Assembly: GCA_017428385.1 (NCBI GenBank)
Contig: JAFRQX010000036.1
Location: forward strand, 7,325-71,324
Direction of reading: 5' to 3'
Length of the DNA: 64,000 nt
Source of the DNA: Clostridia bacterium
GTDB taxonomy: Bacteria; Bacillota; Clostridia; Christensenellales; Aristaeellaceae
The notes beneath the pieces are model-generated. The model saw nothing but the letters and a program-made list of their open reading frames with translations, did not search any database and was not told the DNA's origin. Below, one piece after another: positions 53,790 to 64,000 of the stretch (the first letter of the stretch is position 1; each line of letters starts with the position of its first letter). The translations under genes were made by a program, and so were the position numbers.

Positions 53790-54210
53790 AGGCGGTGTCA
53801 TCGCTTTGCGATGACAAATGCTGTGATCGCTGTATTCCGCAATCTCAATGGTCGCAACTCCACACTGTGGAGTTTGCTCCCTTTCGATTGACCTTAGACC
53901 CGATGAGATTTCCGCCACTGGCGGTCATCGGTTCTTCGCCCAAAGCCGCTGTGCGCCTTTGACAGCTGTAGCATGGGAGTTGTTACCCAAATCATAGATT
54001 TGGACAACTCCTCAACAATTAAGAATGAAGAATGCAGAATGATCCGCTGCGGCGGGAATGACAACGTGGGCGCTGCGAGTTATTCAATGCGCTTTGGGTG
54101 TCATCTTGAGCAAGTGAGCGTAGCGAACGCGTCGAAAGATCTCCCAGCCCGTTTGCAATCGGGAACGCAATCTGAACATCAGAGTGATGAGTGAAGAGAG
54201 AAGAGCGTGC
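53790..54210. repeat. Mosaic intergenic repeat
   Basis: Reverse copy of the GATCCTTCGAC..GCTCAGGATGAC module at 54100-54142, GTCAT..ATGAC hairpin near 53797, GAGTGAA heptamers. Confidence 0.65.
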
Positions 54211-56086: not shown

Positions 56087-57616
56087 TTATTTATGCCATA
56101 CTTCGTTCATGAATTTGATCCGTCTTTCAAGCCACGTTGCAAGCTGTTCGGCAGACTCCTCTTCGTTTTTGCAGGCATAGGCCTGCCGGTTCAGTTCATA
56201 ATCGATGGGAGACTTGTCTCTCATATTGCTCCAGCGTTTATAGTTTTTCGTAAATGCAGATTTGTACTTCTGGCTGTCAGAACGGACTGACTCAATGGTT
56301 TCGGTGAACACGCCCCGGTCATAAAGATCTGTCCACTTCCGGGCGATGATATCTGTGAACCATTCCTGCCTCATCAGTACGTTGAGCCACGGGTTGATTG
56401 CCTTGTACACATGATCCACATCATCCACCACATTGGCCGCGTGGTACCCGCGACCATACTCGACGACATAACGGTTTCCCATGGCTGAATCAAAGTCCCA
56501 GGGGGCTTCAAACCGCAGCTTTTTGTCACCGTCGGGACTGAGATCAGCGCTCATGAAAAAGCTGGAATAGTAAATATCCGGGTCACAGGTGATTTCACTG
56601 AGAATATACATATCCGCCAGGGACTGAACGTCGACGACAGTTTCGACAGCCTCCCGGGGCGTCTTGGAAGACGGTGCGGTATTCCTGAAATCGGCGGTCA
56701 TCTCCAGTGCTTTATCATCATAGGAGGCTGAATACATGATGTCGTAGGTGTTGGAAATAAAGTTCCGGATCGTGATGCGCTGGGTTTCGGAGCGGATATT
56801 GCTCTTGATTGTGAAACCCACAAGATCCTGCTTGCGCTGGGGATCCGTGCAAAGTGGTGTGAAAGGGTTTGCATTGGGATAACCGTTAAACGGAATCAGC
56901 GGCGCAAAATTGTTGTAATTGATGGTGAAGGAGTGCAGGCGGTCTTCCAGCGTGTAATATGCGTCATATTCCACAAAATATCCCACGTTCGGGCCGTTTT
57001 CTCCTTCTTTGGGTTCAGGTACGTTTACGCGGCCCTTGGCTACTTCCTGCTGTTCCGCGAGGAGGTATACGCCCCAGTACTTACCGTTGATCTCCACCTC
57101 AACCAGTTCGCAGTCGGAACAGTAAAGGTCTTCTCTCAGGATTTTGTGTGCCAGTTCAAAGGCTGTTTTGTTCCGCAGCATGGAAAGGTCCTTGTATTCC
57201 GCCAACAGAAGCCAGTTTTTGAACGGCTGTCCTTCGTTAAGATCGCCAAAGGACTGCTTTTCCGTGAATTTGATCCGCAGCGGCTTTTTCTCATAGCTGG
57301 TGGTCCAGTTGCCCCTGACTTTGACCTGCGCCGGTTGCTTGCTGACGGTGGTTTTACCGTCGGTTCCGGTGTAGGAGACGGTGCATTCGACATAATAAGG
57401 TTCAGGGGGGATTTTATAATCGGGCGTCCAAGAGGCGATAGCCGCGGAGACGTTGCCCTTCACGGGTTCGGTCACGAAGCGGGTGCCTTCTCCCTTGGTA
57501 ACGGTTTTGATGGAAATCAGGGGCATCAACCGTTTGCCGGCTGCCTGTGCACCGGCACAGCAAAGAAGAGCCATTGCGATAAGCAGTGCGGCAAGGAATG
57601 CTTTTGTATGTTTCAT
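56087..57616 (-). CDS. Secreted CotH-family atypical kinase
   Basis: KVRGNWT, LRIKF, WLLLAEYKD..LRN, YWGVYLLAEQ, PWDFDSAMG; signal peptide. Confidence 0.88.
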   Translation of the reverse strand: MKHTKAFLAALLIAMALLCCAGAQAAGKRLMPLISIKTVTKGEGTRFVTEPVKGNVSAAIASWTPDYKIPPEPYYVECTVSYTGTDGKTTVSKQPAQVKVRGNWTTSYEKKPLRIKFTEKQSFGDLNEGQPFKNWLLLAEYKDLSMLRNKTAFELAHKILREDLYCSDCELVEVEINGKYWGVYLLAEQQEVAKGRVNVPEPKEGENGPNVGYFVEYDAYYTLEDRLHSFTINYNNFAPLIPFNGYPNANPFTPLCTDPQRKQDLVGFTIKSNIRSETQRITIRNFISNTYDIMYSASYDDKALEMTADFRNTAPSSKTPREAVETVVDVQSLADMYILSEITCDPDIYYSSFFMSADLSPDGDKKLRFEAPWDFDSAMGNRYVVEYGRGYHAANVVDDVDHVYKAINPWLNVLMRQEWFTDIIARKWTDLYDRGVFTETIESVRSDSQKYKSAFTKNYKRWSNMRDKSPIDYELNRQAYACKNEEESAEQLATWLERRIKFMNEVWHK

Positions 57617-57761
57617 ACTGCAGGTCCCTCCCTGTAGATAGGTATGGAAAAAGGAACTGAAAAGGTGTGGGGCTTTGGAAGCTATGGGTTCATTCTACAG
57701 AAGGGGGAGGGGAAAGTCAAATAAAGGGAATGAATACTGAAAACTGATGGGGACGGGGGAG

Positions 57762-58086
57762 GGAGCATAGGGGAGTCGATTCCGTTCGCTCAATGGTCGT
57801 TCAAGTCCCTTGGAGCGGGAGATGTGTGCCCGGGGAGTCGAACCCCGTCTCGCTGCGCTGCGCTTGCTCGGTCAGGTTCGCAATAGTCGTCCGCCTTCTC
57901 TGCCGTTCGGCAGACTCCTTTGCTCACCAGGCTTCCACATCGCTTTCGCCTGCGGCGAGCAGCCCACTGGGCTGCCGCTCTGTTCCGCCCCTCTCCAATG
58001 CTTCGCGTTGTCGAGACAGGGGTCGACTTCCCCTTGCACACATAAACGAAAATCACCACCCATGAAGGGTGGTGATTTTGTTTTGT
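57762..58086. mobile_element. tRNA-derived non-autonomous mini-element bounded by an 18-bp duplication of the tRNA-Ala 3' end
   Basis: ggagcataggggagtcga at 57762-57779 and 58087-58104; internal T-arm copies at 57832-57846 and inverted at about 58000-58042. Confidence 0.6.
58049..58079. terminator. Strong bidirectional terminator downstream of tRNA
   Basis: aaaatcaccaccc-atgaa-gggtggtgatttt. Confidence 0.9.
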
Positions 58087-58141
58087 GGAGCATAGGGGAG
58101 TCGAACCCCTGACCTCGACAATGCGAATGTCGCGCGCTACC
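58086..58141 (-). pseudogene. tRNA-Ala(CGC) 3' portion with non-canonical 5' end (att-like junction)
   Basis: Intact anticodon arm CGACA-TTCGCAT-TGTCG, T-arm AGGGG-TTCGACT-CCCCT and 3' acceptor strand ATGCTCC-A. Expected GGGGCAT/D-stem 5' part absent. Confidence 0.8.
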
Positions 58142-58187
58142 GGGTATGCTTAAACTCACCACAAGCTCCTCAAGCTCTGTGAGCCTT

Positions 58188-58216
58188 ATAATACAACGTT
58201 TTCCGGTTTTTGTCAA
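58188..58216 (-). promoter_or_regulatory. Consensus sigma-A promoter pointing into the tRNA fragment
   Basis: TTGACA-17-TATTAT. Confidence 0.8.
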
Positions 58217-58342
58217 TTTGCTCAAAAACCCTGATTTTCCTATCAGATATGCACTTACTCACTGTAAAAATGGGCGTTTTTTTCGTTTTTAGGCGGTAAC
58301 ACGAATATGAAACTTCTCACCATTTAACAAAATAGACACAAT

Positions 58343-59983
58343 TTACAATGCCATCGTGAAAAAGGTTCTCTGAGCTTCAGAAATCTGGGTTTTCCCATCC
58401 GCAGTTTCTCTTCGAAAATCCTCCAGCGCAACATAAAATGTTACGGAGAGGTAGTAGTCGCGCCTGACCTCTATCCTTTCAATTAGGTGAGCAAGAACCA
58501 TTTTCTTTTCATCCCGTTGCATTAAATCATAAGTATCTGCCCACTCCATGATGCTCTGATACTGACTCGAGAGGAACTTAACATGGTTTTCTTCGTTGTC
58601 CTTTTGCTTTTGAAGATCGGCAATTACTTTCTCCATTGTTGTAATTCGATCGCGAATATCATTCAGCATCGGATTCAACACATCAGCAGTTAGTTTGCTT
58701 TCGCCCATAAGACAGTTGATTATCTCTTTTTCGATAGCCTCACGTTTTGCTTGGAGCTGTTTTAGTTCTCCCTCGCACCTCTTTATCATGCTTAAGGTTG
58801 AGCTTTCTTTTTGCCTCCTGGCTTGTTCTTTCCAGATAGAATCAACTGTAGACTTAACGCTTTCAAAGTACTGATGAACAACACGATCAATCTCATCTTC
58901 AATGATTCTTGCTGAATAGACGGTTTGTCCATCACATTCTCTGGCATCTATTGCTCCATTATAGCAACGATAGATCGGACGGAAGTAAGTGTGGTTTTTT
59001 CGATTTCTTACACAATAGCTTCCAACAAGTTTTTTGTGGCAATGACCGCAATAAAGAATACCCGAAAGCAATGTGGCGCCATAGACTGATGTCTTTGTTC
59101 TTCCCTCTTCAATGATACCATTCTCCAATTCCCTACGGCTGTCATACCGGTGAAGAATACGATCCTTGAGAGCATGCTGGACGAATTCAAACTCAGCATC
59201 TGATATCAAGCGAAGGTCCTCAATAGGTTCTGATACCACATCGTTCATATGCATCCTGCCAGTATACACAATATTCTTTAGTATTGTCATAACTGTCGGC
59301 CGTGTCCAGACTTTCTTGTCGTCTGGGTATTTTTTGTTAAGATGATTACAAATCTGCCATGCACCACAATCGTGTTTTCCAGCCAGATTAAAGATTTCCT
59401 GAATGATCGGGCCTGTCTTTTCATCAATTTCCAAATCATATAGCGGACGATTTTTCTTTCCAATCCGGCCCTTATGCACCAGTTTGTATCCATAAGGGCA
59501 AGTGCCACCTCGCCAGATCCCATCTGCTGTCATTTGAGAATGAGCAGCCTTCACACGTATAGAAGTTTTTTCACTTTCACCACCGGCTTGCCAGTAACGG
59601 ATATAATTGATCAACTTATCTGCCCTGTTCTCAATTCGCTGCTGACCCTCCCTCGTGCTCCAGACTTCAATCCCATGTTCGACAAACCATTGAACCAAAA
59701 AAGGCGTTTCATCTTCTCGTCGTCCAAGTCGGTCAAACATAAAGACCAGGAGAATATCGAACTCCCTGCGCTCAGCTTTTGATCTTATCTCTTGGATAGC
59801 ATCTCGTTTGCTCGCGGAAATCTTATACCCTGAAACGCCTTTTTCCATCAGTTCACCAGTAAACTTCCATTCCGGTTGTCTGCTAATAAAATCCAGACAT
59901 TCACGGCGTTGCATAGGAATGTCATCTTGTGGGTCAACCTGCCCTTTGGTGGATACTCTGTATAAACACATTACTCTTTTCAT
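58343..59983 (-). CDS. Large serine recombinase (resolvase + recombinase + Zn-ribbon/coiled coil)
   Basis: CLYRVST catalytic Ser, FMFDRLGR, GGTCPYGY, LSGILYCGHC...YRC; RBS before ATG 59983. Confidence 0.95.
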   Translation of the reverse strand: MKRVMCLYRVSTKGQVDPQDDIPMQRRECLDFISRQPEWKFTGELMEKGVSGYKISASKRDAIQEIRSKAERREFDILLVFMFDRLGRREDETPFLVQWFVEHGIEVWSTREGQQRIENRADKLINYIRYWQAGGESEKTSIRVKAAHSQMTADGIWRGGTCPYGYKLVHKGRIGKKNRPLYDLEIDEKTGPIIQEIFNLAGKHDCGAWQICNHLNKKYPDDKKVWTRPTVMTILKNIVYTGRMHMNDVVSEPIEDLRLISDAEFEFVQHALKDRILHRYDSRRELENGIIEEGRTKTSVYGATLLSGILYCGHCHKKLVGSYCVRNRKNHTYFRPIYRCYNGAIDARECDGQTVYSARIIEDEIDRVVHQYFESVKSTVDSIWKEQARRQKESSTLSMIKRCEGELKQLQAKREAIEKEIINCLMGESKLTADVLNPMLNDIRDRITTMEKVIADLQKQKDNEENHVKFLSSQYQSIMEWADTYDLMQRDEKKMVLAHLIERIEVRRDYYLSVTFYVALEDFRRETADGKTQISEAQRTFFTMAL

Positions 59984-60552
59984 ACTGCAACCCTCTTTCC
60001 TTTGAGGGCTATAGCATGGAAGCGCGCAGCATTCAGTTTTCAAGGTGCGTTTTATGTACAGTCACAGATTAGTTTTAGGAATTAAAAGTGTCAAGGATAT
60101 CATTTCGCTCACTCGTCTGAGTTCGAACTCGTGTCCTACCTCTTAGGAGATCGAAAAAGTGTTCGCCTTTGCTGTTCCCTGAAGTGCCTTTAAGCCTTGC
60201 CATTGCTGGGTTTCTAACGTTTTTCACAGTTCGCATTTTCCTTCAAAATACCCCCGTTTTCCCCCAGTGCTGTTAGCTGGGTGTTAGCACAGCTAACAAA
60301 GGCGGCGTGTTCGACTTTCACATCTACCGCCAAATCGTTAGCTGGACGTGATGAAATCATCATCATTTATCCCCGTAATGCGTCAAATGACTGCCCAGTC
60401 ATGAATGAATATTCATTGCATATTTTCCAAGACGCTTCCAGTATTCCAGATCTGTGTTTTGTCCCTCCATAAAGCGGATCGCGGCATAAGGGCCGGGAAA
60501 TGCACGAACTCCCACGGGGTATGTGCCTCGTGGGAGTTTTTTTTCGTCTTTT

Positions 60553-61728
60553 TTACTCGATTTCGAGAGTGATTGCTTCCTCCATGTGCGGCTGCTGGTT
60601 CTGGTAAACGGGCACTAAGGAGATGCCAGTCAAATCATTCATGGCATCAAATAATACTTCATATACAAGCTGGTTTTCTCCGCTTATTCCGACACCTTGC
60701 ACTCCGTTCTCTGAAATTATTTCACCATTGACATATAGGTACCAATCCTCGATCATGTCAATATGATCCGGATTCTCCCATGTCTTCCAGACTTGAATCC
60801 ACGCATCCGGGCAGGTGATCATGATTTTTCCACGCAAATCGATATGTCCTGCCGTCAGTTCAGCCATAGCCGTATAATTCGAGCCACTTATGCTGCCTTT
60901 CAGCCGTGTCAGATCGGTGTTCTGATTCAAAGTGAATTCAAAGAAGGTGTTTTCGCCTCTCTCCGTCGACTGCCGATACGTGGTTCCGTCTTGATACATG
61001 ATGCTGTGAATACGATAAAGTTTTGCCTGGAAAGTCAAGGTTTCCTCAAGACGATCATCAGGAATTTCACACTCTTTCCATCCGATGACGCTACCATCTT
61101 CCTGGACGATATTGTCCCCGCCAATAATATCAAGATAGGTTCCGTCCGCTAAACTCAGACCATCATGCAATCCTTTTTCTGTGCTTTCAATCCATCGCTG
61201 GCTTTGACCATCAAGCTGCAGGATTGCCTGCTGACGTTCAGGCTCGTCGCTGATCATAGTTTGGGAGACAATCATGTTTTCTTCAACCCAATCCCAATTG
61301 ATTTCACCATCCGGGCTGCCTTCATGGAGAACGGTTGAAGTCCAGTCGCCGCTCATCCGATATGAAATAAACACTCGGTTTCCTTCATAATATGCCTGCT
61401 CGATACGGATGGTGATACCATCATCTGTTGTCCATTCACGTTCAATAGGATCGGCGACTTTATCTACTTCTGAAAGTCTGCTGTCCCCACGCGGATTCTG
61501 CGCCAGTTCGCCGAAGAGCCCAAGCCCGGCTGCAAGTGCGGCGGTCATGGAAATAATAACAAGAGCAATAACAAGAATGGCAGATGTAGAAAGCTTTTTG
61601 ACCACAGGTTCTTCTCCTTTCGCTTTTCGTGCAATCTGGTAATGCAGCGAAGGCGCTTCGTCAATCCCGCGAGTACAATCGTCAATCGCAGCGCGGATGC
61701 TGTTCATGATTTCCTGATCAGTTTTCAT
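60553..61728 (-). CDS. Anti-sigma-like membrane protein (DUF4179-like)
   Basis: Overlaps sigma stop; TM ending TAALAAG; GITIRIEQAYYEG beta segment resembles 40344-41471. Confidence 0.7.
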   Translation of the reverse strand: MKTDQEIMNSIRAAIDDCTRGIDEAPSLHYQIARKAKGEEPVVKKLSTSAILVIALVIISMTAALAAGLGLFGELAQNPRGDSRLSEVDKVADPIEREWTTDDGITIRIEQAYYEGNRVFISYRMSGDWTSTVLHEGSPDGEINWDWVEENMIVSQTMISDEPERQQAILQLDGQSQRWIESTEKGLHDGLSLADGTYLDIIGGDNIVQEDGSVIGWKECEIPDDRLEETLTFQAKLYRIHSIMYQDGTTYRQSTERGENTFFEFTLNQNTDLTRLKGSISGSNYTAMAELTAGHIDLRGKIMITCPDAWIQVWKTWENPDHIDMIEDWYLYVNGEIISENGVQGVGISGENQLVYEVLFDAMNDLTGISLVPVYQNQQPHMEEAITLEIE

Positions 61729-62242
61729 CGTCTTCGCCTCCTTCCAGTTCGGTTCTCAGTTTCTGCTTTGCCTTATGGATTCTGCTGGAAACAGCTGCTT
61801 CCGTCAGGTTCAGCATTTTTGCGATTTCTTTGATGGGATAGCCCTCATAGAAATACAGCAGAACGACTTCCATGTATTTGGGCTTCAACTTCATGATCGC
61901 CATGGTCAGAGCAATATGATCATCGCTTGGTGGCGCAGATGACAGGAAGGGCAGCTGGTCGACGGAAACACGAAAATCAATGTATCGATACCATGCACTT
62001 CGTCTGTAATCCCGACAGCAATTGATTGCGATCCGGATCAGCCAGGTCTTTTCACTGCTTTCCCCACGAAAAGAATCCATGCTCCTGAAAGCCTTCAGAA
62101 AGGTTTCCTGTACCACATCCTCCGCAGCAGTACGATCTCTCAGGTATATGCAGCAGATTCGGAGCAGATCCTTTTCATATTGCTGCACCATTTGATCAAG
62201 TCGGTCTGCCGGGGTTTGATTCGGCGCCTGAATCATTCCCAC
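61718..62242 (-). CDS. ECF RNA polymerase sigma factor
   Basis: AEDVVQETF, KTWLIRIAIN, YPIKEIAKML; CGTCTAA at 62265-62271. Confidence 0.93.
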   Translation of the reverse strand: MGMIQAPNQTPADRLDQMVQQYEKDLLRICCIYLRDRTAAEDVVQETFLKAFRSMDSFRGESSEKTWLIRIAINCCRDYRRSAWYRYIDFRVSVDQLPFLSSAPPSDDHIALTMAIMKLKPKYMEVVLLYFYEGYPIKEIAKMLNLTEAAVSSRIHKAKQKLRTELEGGEDDEN

Positions 62243-62515
62243 CGTTGATCACCTCCTCAATCATTTAGACGATGGGCAAGCCCAAAACTTAAATTTTTCA
62301 GAAAATGTTTTTCGAGGTGGCTTTTTCGATGCCACCCCATTGTTATACACGATTTCCGGCCCTTAAGCCACACCGATTTCTGTTTTTATAGAAAGAGTGC
62401 CTGTCCGGCAAAACGTTCACATCGAGCAGTACATGCAGATCACAACATAAGAGCAGTTAAAGAGACTCCCGCAGGATGCTGGGCCTTGCATTTTCTATTA
62501 TTACTCATCGTTATT

Positions 62516-62848
62516 CTATATGCCCTTGTCTTTCATTCTTTTCAGAGCCTCTTCCGCACCTTTGACTGCGGTCATCTCAACAAGCACATCCTTAAGTTCT
62601 GTCTCCAGTTCACGCATTCTTTTTTCTTTTCTCCAGGAAAGTCTAGGCAAATTGATTCCCCATTCTATCTGAGTTTCTGTCGCTCCTGCGTCTTTGAGTA
62701 TTTCTTTCATTTCCTTCAATAGTTTTTCTCCTCTTTTATCCAGCTCACTCCAGTTTGATATCAATTTATTTTTTAATTCTTCCTTGTCAATGCGTCTTGA
62801 AGCAATCATTTCCATTACATGTTCTACGAATTGATCTATTTCATTCAT
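62516..62848 (-). CDS. Hypothetical charged helical protein
   Basis: 110-aa AT-rich ORF with Glu/Lys-rich composition; start overlaps an upstream stop (ATGA). Confidence 0.6.
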   Translation of the reverse strand: MNEIDQFVEHVMEMIASRRIDKEELKNKLISNWSELDKRGEKLLKEMKEILKDAGATETQIEWGINLPRLSWRKEKRMRELETELKDVLVEMTAVKGAEEALKRMKDKGI

Positions 62849-63159
62849 TTTGCCTTACCCGCTTTTCTCCGTAGGTCATTCTCGATACTTTTCCACATTG
62901 AATCTGATGTAACAAGATAAGATTCTTATATTGACGCTTCGGTGTACTTTCTTTCCTTCTTAACGTTGAAGTCCTTGCAAAATTGTCTGCGATCGGATAC
63001 ACCCCCCAAAAAAACAAATATCACAGACTTGCCTGTGATACCTGATAGCAGGTTCATCAGTGCATGCCTATGATATTTATATTTTATCACACAGTATTCT
63101 GTTGTCAATTTTATGGGCCAATCAGCATACACCGCCAGAGTCATCATGAGAGTATGCAC
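62845..63159 (-). pseudogene. Possible degraded gene with internal stop
   Basis: Frame of ORF 62926-63159 continues past TAA as ESYLVTSDSMWKSIENDLRRKAGKAK-TGA, coupled to the next ATG. Confidence 0.35.
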
Positions 63160-63263
63160 GGTAGAATAACTCGACTGTTTATCCTACCATGCATGAGCTA
63201 TTGTTGAAAAACTAAACCGGGGATGCGCTCCCCGGCCCTCATGTCGCGATCTGCTTATAGCTC

Positions 63264-64000
63264 TCAGTTTATCAGTTCCAGATTCCCTTGTTCGTCGATG
63301 CTGTAATCAAATACATCCAGAACAGCGCCTGTCGGCACAAATTCATTCCGTACTTCATCGAATACCAACGGCGAAAGCTGGCGGAAAATGTGCACACCGT
63401 CTCTGCCATAGCAGGCCGAGCCGTATGCCTGGATGCCTGAATCCTGGTAAACTTCGTATCCGTAGGTTGTATAACTCGCCTCGATTTTTCGCGTTTGCAA
63501 ATGATACACATCAATGTACCGGACATAGCATCCCGTCCCATGTCCGATCACACTGAACTCCAGATAAACGCTTGTTCCATGATCGGTGCCGCACACACGG
63601 AAGTCCTCGCACGCAAAGGGGATGTAGTCCCACAGATACCAATCGGGCCACTGCTCCACAAAGATCAGGGTTCCTTCTTCACCCCAGCCCCATCCGGAAA
63701 AACTGATGACCTGCACCAACGGCACATTCTCGGTTGAAATATCTGAATTCCCATGATGCTGAAGGTCTGCCTGGCTGATAAGCTCCCGAAGCACAGGCGC
63801 TCCGCAGGGCTCCATTTCGATTCCCCAGGATTGAAGCAGCTCGCGTGTTGCTTCGTCCTGACCCCGGTCATAGGCGTCCCGCAGACGCTGACAGGCCTCC
63901 TCCGGATCCATGGCAAGTGGCTGAAACCCCCGCTCCTCTGCTCCGTTATAGCGTGGGATTTCTTCACGCCAAACATAGCCGCTGTGTTCTCGCACGTTTT
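63264..64000 (-). CDS. Hypothetical protein, 5' end beyond window
   Basis: 243+ aa open frame running to window edge. Confidence 0.7.
   Translation of the reverse strand, partial: NVREHSGYVWREEIPRYNGAEERGFQPLAMDPEEACQRLRDAYDRGQDEATRELLQSWGIEMEPCGAPVLRELISQADLQHHGNSDISTENVPLVQVISFSGWGWGEEGTLIFVEQWPDWYLWDYIPFACEDFRVCGTDHGTSVYLEFSVIGHGTGCYVRYIDVYHLQTRKIEASYTTYGYEVYQDSGIQAYGSACYGRDGVHIFRQLSPLVFDEVRNEFVPTGAVLDVFDYSIDEQGNLELIN

Follow-up and report, generated by a model that had tools for sequence, protein, structure and literature searches.

Prophages and islands classically insert at transfer RNA genes, and Williams, writing in Nucleic Acids Res in 2002, reportedly treated direct repeats of a tRNA 3' end that start in the T-loop as the classical integration signature. 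The tRNA-targeting integrative elements and their integrase-less derivatives, such as the cis-mobilisable elements (CIMEs) of Streptococcus thermophilus, are bounded by tRNA 3'-end repeats from the T-arm or T-loop onward, regenerate the tRNA 3' end while displacing the old one, and stack in tandem with the newest beside the gene; the derivatives have no recombinase of their own. The small units described here resemble them in all of these respects. A dispersed repeat inside these units, which we call the core, is on the other hand like the REP/REPIN-RAYT sequences and PATEs, which are also dispersed, extragenic, lineage-restricted and hairpin-structured, have neither terminal inverted repeats nor target duplications, and show precise presence or absence. 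Finally, the direct-inverted-direct order of the units, the position of both junctions at natural hairpins and a lineage-specific stem extension that copies the opposite arm are features shared with quasipalindromes and TIDs, for which template-switch models were reportedly put forward by Ripley (quasipalindromes) and by Kugelberg and Roth (Salmonella TIDs). Each of the known families compared fails at least one defining test here, and our literature searches turned up no account of cassettes linked to tRNAs in this way. The cassettes differ from the tRNA integrative elements in being only about 200–300 bp long and gene-free and in carrying an inverted tRNA half; moreover, one cassette family serves at least eight tRNAs, and the genome has no matching set of integrases.

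The window, i.e. the whole stretch of DNA analysed, is 64,000 nucleotides long and comes from an uncultured ruminant-gut Clostridia MAG (G000 below); the locus of interest is at positions 57762–58141 (Table 1). The initial annotation, made from the letters alone, had described this locus as a tRNA-derived mini-element built of direct and inverted copies of a tRNA-Ala 3' half, and the repeats that it reported are present. A repeat finder gives the 18-bp direct repeat GGAGCATAGGGGAGTCGA as exact at 57762–57779 and 58087–58104, the 15-bp T-arm copy GGGGAGTCGAACCCC as exact at 57832–57846 and 58095–58109, and the inverted tRNA half as arms at 58002–58015 and 58114–58127 that are 93% complementary. 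The palindrome that had been pointed out, the CAGCCCACTGGGCTG hairpin, lies where it was placed (cagcccactgggctg at 57960–57974) and is P2, the second hairpin of the core fold; the repeat finder also gives an inverted pair that had been missed, 57822–57836 with 58029–58043. By chance about 6e-6 exact 18-mer repeats are expected within 900 bp (about 4e5 position pairs times 4^-18). As a control, every ARAGORN tRNA gene of the genome (n=48) was aligned with its own 700-nt flanks; the scores have a background of 6–10 and reach 16–20 at a handful of loci that bear the layout described below, far above the controls, and the window flank scores 20 (inverted) against its own tRNA and no more than 8.5 against six other tRNAs.

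Table 1. Features of the element and its surroundings (window coordinates)
Feature	Position	Strand	Basis or remark
tRNA-Ala(CGC) 3' 56 nt, from D-loop GGTAG to discriminator	58086..58141	-	Identity to the C41 gene
Terminator hairpin of unit 1, bidirectional, 13-bp stem	58049..58079		Identical in G059
Antisense arm, degenerate inverted tRNA 3' half	58000..58043	-	79% identity; identical in G059
Turn palindrome CAACGCGAAGCATTGGAGAGG	57990..58010	-	Switch from antisense to sense at the anticodon loop
Diverged core (dispersed structured repeat)	57851..57989	-	nhmmer family profile, 57789-57985, E 9e-9
Sense T-arm copy closing unit 1 (GAGAC GGGGTTCGACTCCCC)	57832..57850	-	Repeat finder
Patch at the deletion joint, GGGCACACAT	57822..57831	-	Absent from G059, which has GGGAGGGCAAG
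Hairpin module (..GCTCCAAGG..CGACCATTGAGCGAACGG), 3' remainder of the unit-2 core	57782..57821	-	Aligned with G059 unit 2
Terminal direct copy of the tRNA 3' end, T-loop to acceptor	57762..57781	-	Repeat finder
Second core copy, tied to no tRNA	53837..53931	-	BLAST and nhmmer profile
Right end of island with large serine recombinase gene (58343-60043)	58142..60043	-	Pfam, GC, promoter scan

What had been annotated as tRNA-Ala, at 58086–58158, is not an intact gene. ARAGORN finds no tRNA in the window; the Rfam tRNA match there (38.6 bits) has a mispaired acceptor stem, with 2 of 7 pairs broken, and no complete cloverleaf is formed. It is 58084–58141 alone that is 100% identical to an intact tRNA-Ala(CGC) gene, C41:9094–9167, and the identity ends in the D-loop; the orthologue at the locus is whole in the related genomes G059, G041 and G001. 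The DNA beyond the break belongs to an island whose large serine recombinase has the Pfam domains Resolvase, Recombinase and Zn_ribbon_recom. At 58.1 kb the G+C content drops from about 0.52 to 0.43, and a promoter-like site found by the promoter scan at 58216–58188 points into the tRNA remnant. The matching left junction is found on C41 and in G007, where foreign DNA that includes a complete tRNA-Ala(CGC) begins right after the first 22 nt of the tRNA (to GGTAG); at the locus in G059 and G041 the tRNA is whole and there is no island. An island therefore inserted into the D-loop, dividing the tRNA and supplying another copy of it. This serine-recombinase island is an insertion separate from the cassettes. 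Covariance-model searches (cmscan) of 56500–59500, with E up to 1, and of six related loci, with E up to 0.1, gave tRNA matches and noise only, with no match to a known Rfam family (ribozymes included) and no tRNA-model match within the cores of the window and those six loci. A tmRNA or other tRNA-like RNA gene is also ruled out here; the tmRNA of the genome is at C14:84832–85173.

Comparison with the closest relative, G059, resolves the structure of the element. Its flanks at this locus are 96–100% identical to those of the window, and between them lie two complete tandem units, each running from a terminator through an antisense tRNA 3' half, a turn and a structured core to a sense tRNA 3' end. 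Unit 1 is preceded by the intact tRNA, has the same terminator and antisense arm as the window, and continues to a perfect 24-nt GGGGTTCGACTCCCCTATGCTCCA, the full form of the T-arm copy that closes unit 1 in the window. Unit 2 has another terminator, another antisense arm, a longer palindromic turn and a second core, and it ends with the degenerate tRNA-end copy AGGGGTTCGGCTCCCCTATGCG, after which comes the CotH flank that the window also has. The window tracks unit 1 through the T-arm (57832–57850) and then, from the last hairpin (57782–57821) on, tracks unit 2; because the alignment jumps from one unit to the other, we read the window as holding unit 1 joined to the tail of unit 2, with about 190 nt deleted. 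Judged by this alignment, the locus is a deletion fusion of two units, and the single 325-bp element of the initial annotation is instead two units joined by deletion. (CotH synteny did not serve as a way to empty sites, as CotH does not lie beside tRNA-Ala(CGC) in more distant species.)

The individual parts differ in how well they are preserved. The antisense arm spans the acceptor, T-arm, variable region and anticodon stem and loop; in G059 the arm of unit 1 has already diverged to about 75–80% identity with the tRNA (estimated by eye), while the direct copy in that unit is perfect. The turn is nearly constant: almost all of its columns are invariant in an alignment of G000, G059, G041 and G001, and none of the four differs in CAA.GCGAAGCATTGGAGAGGG. 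The locus has a form of its own in G041 and in G001, with other hairpins at the terminator position. The window core has an additional internal hairpin at 57894–57918, and G059 has a near-identical core. Within the patch at the deletion joint, the segment GCACACAT is the perfect complement of ATGTGTGC at 58036–58043, the start of the antisense arm, which suggests that the patch arose by templated fold-back synthesis, copied from the opposite hairpin arm. The hairpin module next to it recurs at C45, C21, C3 and other sites, and 57762–57820 is 98% identical in G001. The conserved sequence of the element ends with the terminal copy at 57762–57781, beyond which the flanks differ in G000, G001 and G018; this terminal copy is the oldest displaced tRNA end.

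The initial annotation had proposed a search of other tRNA loci for the same internal palindromes, and the layout is in fact found behind at least eight tRNA genes of this genome (Ala-CGC, Ala-GGC, Met, Val, Pro, Arg, Asn and Ser), in each case with arms that match the local tRNA. One order is shared by the loci behind Ala-CGC, Ala-GGC, Met, Val-GAC and Pro-CGG: the tRNA, a terminator hairpin, the inverted copy of the tRNA's own 3' half, a palindromic turn at the anticodon hairpin, a short sense piece, the core (directly after the GGGG of the variable loop or T-stem) and a sense T-arm that may include the acceptor strand. When seven flanks were compared with seven tRNAs, the inverted and direct copies matched their own neighbour: the diagonal of the table scored 16–23 and the off-diagonal mostly 6–12. 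Only the direct copies at Met and Val depart from this, with diagonal values of 11.5 and 13, and these two tRNAs cross-match at up to 14.5. Variants were seen as well. The tRNA-Arg locus has a reversed core, no antisense arm, and a duplicated tRNA end and terminator; the tRNA-Asn locus has a short antisense arm; and at tRNA-Ser the T-loop of a whole promoter-plus-tRNA copy holds a core, and an intact duplicate follows downstream. A further variant stands upstream of tRNA-Ala(CGC), where nt 1–19 of the tRNA precede a core. Of 43 core clusters, 8 have an intact tRNA gene within 400 nt, where 0.33 would be expected (P 1.5e-9); when the comparison is limited to an assumed 12% non-coding fraction, P is 0.006.

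Empty alleles, for which the initial annotation had suggested a comparison of strains, were found in congeners. A single unit of about 290 nt (terminator, arm, core and 3'-end copy) stands behind the tRNA in G018 and is lacking in G010; in G010 the tRNA is directly followed by the sequence that in G018 comes after the unit's terminal tRNA-end copy. The two alleles part exactly at the tRNA 3'-end repeat, and their downstream flanks share about 88% identity (by eye). Direct repeats of the tRNA 3' end bound the inserts, and the tRNA is regenerated, as at an att site; no cognate integrase lies in or beside the units, the adjacent serine recombinase being that of the separate island that cut the D-loop. 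At tRNA-Pro, G041 has one unit and G000 two, and both arrays end with CACTTCGA and the same native terminator. At tRNA-Ala(GGC) the core is of type A in G000 and G007 and of type B in G059, with identical junctions, and in G014 and G052 only (TT)GCGGAAC is left at the core junction. The arrays show a gradient: preservation is best in the unit beside the gene, decay is greatest at the far end, and the native terminator stands past the last copy, which is what successive rounds of recombination into the tRNA 3' end would leave. Most cassettes are old and common to several species, and G018 versus G010 is the only direct recent case at a tRNA; that difference could equally be a deletion between direct repeats.

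The core itself is a dispersed structured repeat with 50 copies in the 3.3-Mb genome (BLAST and an iterated nhmmer profile). The consensus fold of 20 full-length copies has 30 pairs, of which 21 show compensatory changes (for example CAACC/GGTTG, CATCC/GGATG and CAAGC/GCTTG); G-U pairs (12) are not clearly favoured over A-C mismatches (8). In a scan of 201 genomes sampled from the order, strong covariance-model matches were confined to the window's genus and one sister genus, and two further genomes had single weak matches (E about 1e-3 to 1e-4). No match was found in phage and plasmid collections, and carriage of the core by either was rejected on that ground. The orientation of the cores is 25:23 relative to neighbouring ORFs (on a crude ORF map) and 21:27 relative to GC skew, ratios that led us to discard a cis-regulatory 3'-UTR element and a lagging-strand bias, respectively. 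Some cores abut 5S rRNA genes, as read from the flanking sequence.

The mobility of the core is visible where filled and empty alleles can be aligned. The flanks of 15 copies were located in three close relatives, and G041 has clean empty sites for C44:55793, C3:119436 and the window's own second copy, with flanks close to 100% identical; for the last, 106 nt are absent between otherwise matching flanks. Further empty sites are those of C8:74617 and C9:4593 in G059 and of C29:127410 in G007. The inserts always stand after a G-run (GGGGG, GGGGA, TTTGG, GGAG) and end in ..TTGCGGA(T/A); they have no terminal inverted repeats, and their target duplications are of 0–2 nt. These aligned alleles indicate that the core is an independently mobile layer, separable from the cassettes. 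At C32, G059 retains only the 19-nt 3' end of a core, and in the filled allele at C28 a native 29-nt hairpin is duplicated, with one copy on each side of the core. The C9 locus had prompted the idea that the stem of the type-A core is native flank DNA; this is ruled out, because the clean empty site of the copy at 53837–53931 shows both strands of the stem inside the insert. We also considered a rule that every copy mirrors its flank, directly or inverted. It does not hold for the whole family, because only 12 of 42 copies score above 11 (the 99th percentile of the null is 11–12); most of the copies that exceed it are at tRNA or pseudo-tRNA loci.

In behaviour the core resembles REPIN or PATE-type repeats. 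In common with REP/REPIN sequences it is extragenic, multi-copy, hairpin-forming and lineage-restricted, and the genome has Y1 transposase homologues, as REP/REPIN-RAYT systems do; however, the core is a multi-hairpin fold of 95–130 nt and not a 20–40-nt palindrome or doublet, and the four Y1/RAYT-like genes of the genome (PF01797) are each flanked by other palindromes, of 30–35 nt, with the nearest cores about 4 kb away. To our knowledge, linkage to tRNA ends is not a feature of REPINs. For an IS200/IS605-type element, the source of the PATEs, one would expect insertion 3' of a short fixed target, neither terminal inverted repeats nor target duplication, and a strand bias to the lagging-strand template; the core inserts follow a G-run and lack such repeats and duplications, and their orientation shows no strand bias relative to GC skew (21:27). 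No TnpB was found in the genome, which removes a TnpB/omega-RNA system from consideration. A classical MITE was rejected, as the ends of the core (GGGGAGCGA.. and ..TTGCGGA) are not inverted repeats and the duplication is 0–2 nt; one composite at C37 has 22-bp inverted ends and an 8-bp repeat. The part of the initial annotation that called the element tRNA-derived and SINE-like does not stand, for only the arms are copies of a tRNA, and the body is a dispersed repeat that also occurs at many non-tRNA sites. A SINE is further rejected by a body without a tRNA-model match, by the 0–2 nt target duplications at clean core insertions, and by the sequences themselves, in which no A-tail was seen. 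Its more general suggestion of a non-autonomous element or att-scar type of structure is, on the other hand, supported.

We propose that the locus is a DNA-level relic and not a gene, left by two non-coding cassettes inserted successively into the 3' end of tRNA-Ala(CGC), and we would give this reading about an even chance of being correct. A cassette would be a piece of about 200–300 bp made up of a terminator hairpin, an inverted tRNA 3' half, the turn, a mobile core and a direct copy of the T-arm and acceptor. It would insert by recombination inside the T-arm/acceptor region of the tRNA, bringing a replacement tRNA 3' end and a terminator, and the earlier 3' end would be displaced downstream; such displacement would therefore pile up copies, with the oldest and most decayed farthest from the gene. 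In G000 the deletion of about 190 nt then joined unit 1 with the end of unit 2, and the fold-back patch probably lengthened the hairpin at the joint; later the serine-recombinase island cut the tRNA in the D-loop, the replacement tRNA being the one now on C41. The mobile cores, inserting after G-runs, would form a second, separable layer. The units appear to arrive ready-made and not to be built in place, because the terminators of tandem units are unrelated and a diverged arm stands beside a perfect direct copy; comparison of the units therefore argues that the antisense arm was carried in and not freshly copied.

The main rival to inserted cassettes is synthesis in place, which we consider unlikely although it is the strongest of the alternatives. 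Here the tRNA 3' half would have been triplicated, in direct-inverted-direct order, by template switching, with a fold-back at the terminator hairpin and a return at the anticodon hairpin and with no mobile cassette at all; the structured repeat would later have landed in the spare sense copy, at its GGGG, without doing harm. The order of the copies and the placing of both turns at natural hairpins are what such a process predicts. The patch GGGCACACAT, which is specific to G000, extends its hairpin by copying the opposite arm, and the T-arm stem of G001 is lengthened by ..TTGACC; the cores move independently, always to a site after a G-run, and the triplication is almost core-free in G014 and G052. 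However, tandem units differ in their terminators and arms, and a resident fold-back cannot put a new terminator beside the tRNA; the direct copy is still perfect beside an arm that has diverged; and the same several-step outcome would be needed again at eight or more tRNAs. Set against quasipalindromes and TIDs, the scale here is tens of bases and not kilobases, the pattern recurs at many tRNAs, and tandem units differ in their terminators. Ordinary att scars are a less probable source still, and we think them improbable: large prophages or islands would have integrated at the tRNA through their own integrases and then been deleted, leaving duplicated tRNA 3' ends behind, and the dispersed repeats would afterwards have colonised the leftover, dispensable DNA. 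Direct repeats of tRNA 3' ends that start in the T-loop fit the classical integration signature, the tRNA-Ser region (C3, 19.5–25.8 kb) has several tRNA-Ser fragments with genes between them, tRNA-Ala(CGC) is an island hotspot (it holds the serine-recombinase island), and G014, G019, G002 and G010 have multiple copies of the 3' 57 nt of the tRNA. Yet integrase recombination yields no antisense arms, and across many tRNAs and species the units are without exception small and free of genes; the cores lie within 0–3 nt of tRNA pieces, with the same junction across species, and the difference between G018 and G010 is just about 290 nt.

A functional structured RNA, made by read-through or from an unrecognised promoter, is the least probable of the alternatives, and we regard it as very improbable. 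Its predicted tRNA-like closing stem (acceptor-like stem plus T-arm) would serve as a processing signal, decoy, antisense regulator or guide for the neighbouring tRNA. The predicted fold is strong (z -4.4 as RNA), compensatory changes in the core are abundant, four species share an invariant turn that contains the anticodon complement, and the arm has two alternative predicted pairing partners, the tRNA 3' half and the sense copy downstream. Against these points, the promoter scan found no promoter-like site inside the element, which lies behind a strong bidirectional terminator and before the promoter of the next gene; the cores are randomly oriented (see above); the arms have decayed to about 75–80% identity (by eye), and large parts of units are deleted between close relatives; G-U pairs are not clearly preferred in the core; and no Rfam family matches. 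An RNA function is disfavoured because there is no promoter-like site, the core orientation is random, and the units decay and are deleted among close relatives. The antisense or decoy tRNA RNA envisaged in the initial annotation fares no better, as the unit has no promoter-like site of its own and sits behind the terminator, and the window's arm has drifted to about 79% identity.

Returning to the inserted cassettes, the anatomy of the units, their tandem arrangement, the boundaries of the insertions and deletions, and the family and its mobility can be read directly from the alignments, whereas the recombination mechanism, the form of the free intermediate and the enzyme belong to the inferred part of the proposal. 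The genome has three tyrosine recombinase matches, none of them at cassette loci: one is Xer-like (C14:36055–37278), one is truncated and one lies beside tRNA-Arg(ACG). The tyrosine recombinase next to cores on C34 was rejected as a candidate because it is a truncated relic, and no ORF with a recombinase domain was found within the units. No candidate enzyme stands out in the genome, which counts against the cassettes, and arms for at least eight tRNAs in one family are hard to reconcile with classical sequence-specific integrases; the Arg (reversed core, no arm) and Ser (promoter-plus-tRNA duplicate) loci do not fit the layout. In a speculative model, which we hold to be improbable, the units would be a protein-less, self-framing class of mobile DNA whose free form would be a small circle or single-stranded "dumbbell" integrated by a host enzyme. 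The stem of the dumbbell would be a duplex copy of the target tRNA 3' end, capped by the terminator hairpin and by the folded core, and the folded stem would mimic the chromosomal site, so that an Xer-like or Y1 HUH enzyme could integrate it. The CTX phage uses folded single-stranded DNA in this way at dif. Exchange of the stem would direct a cassette to a different tRNA, which would explain how one family can serve many tRNAs without many integrases.

The same tRNA site logic that serves prophages and islands is here used by gene-free units of a few hundred bases, with one repeat family at many tRNAs. The units create pseudo-tRNA fragments, spare terminators and long palindromes, and they confuse tRNA and island prediction as well as assembly. 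If the cassettes are truly mobile, their choice of site would be made by the copy of the target that they carry and not by a dedicated integrase.

The tRNA-Ala(CGC) gene of the window is interrupted in its D-loop by an island that encodes a large serine recombinase and bears a complete replacement tRNA-Ala(CGC) of its own; the crossover lies near GGTAG, and a near-consensus promoter-like site (TTGACA-17-TATTAT) faces the truncated tRNA gene. The left junction is built in the same way in the related genome G007, and in the genome G009 sequence of the same island type lies immediately after an intact tRNA-Ala(CGC), with a different upstream context. The low-complexity intergenic repeat AATGAATACTGAAAACTTAAAACTTAAAAATG is present at the listed window site and at 25 further sites (26 exact copies in the genome), usually right behind a terminator hairpin, and further short-period intergenic repeats, GTGAAGAGTGAAGAG.. 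and GGAGGTATGAGGTAGG.., are found near it.

Locations of the features in the window and on other contigs of its genome
Feature	Contig	Coordinates
Serine-recombinase island, part in window	window	58142-64000
Serine-recombinase island, contig with left junction	C41	1-9290
Promoter-like site	window	58216-58188
AATGAATACTGAAAACTTAAAACTTAAAAATG copy	window	57729-57745
Y1 homologue	C35	10277-11284
Y1 homologue	C35	15522-16298
Y1 homologue	C30	1852-2613
Y1 homologue	C36	11512-12276
Truncated tyrosine-recombinase gene	C34	1639-2319
Composite core copy	C37	3000-3400
Core insertion at protein gene end	C32	22150-22442
Core at 5S rRNA gene end	C44	451-814
Core at 5S rRNA gene end	C28	113163-113291

The genome encodes four homologues of Y1 (IS200-like) transposases, each of about 250 amino acids with a C-terminal helix-turn-helix. 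In a RAYT/REP-like arrangement, several have in their flanks palindromes of 30-35 nt that recur at other genomic sites; some of the palindromes adjoin copies of the core (the dispersed structured mobile repeat) or are nested inside them. Two tandem cores of the type A variant lie about 200 nt downstream of a truncated tyrosine-recombinase gene, probably a relic, that retains the catalytic domain only. One composite core copy sits in a frame like that of a classical MITE, made up of inverted ends 22 bp long, TATCAGGGTTTCCGGATGCGCGGG with its complement, and an 8-bp direct repeat, ACAGCGAG.

At one protein gene a core insertion has replaced the final codons and stop codon, so that the protein ends …CWNGEEDE* whereas that of the closest relative, G059, ends …CWDGRGDDD*; in the window's genome three tandem copies of the core 3' half follow. 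Cores also immediately adjoin 5S rRNA gene ends, and the family therefore seems to be drawn to the flanks of stable-RNA genes in general.
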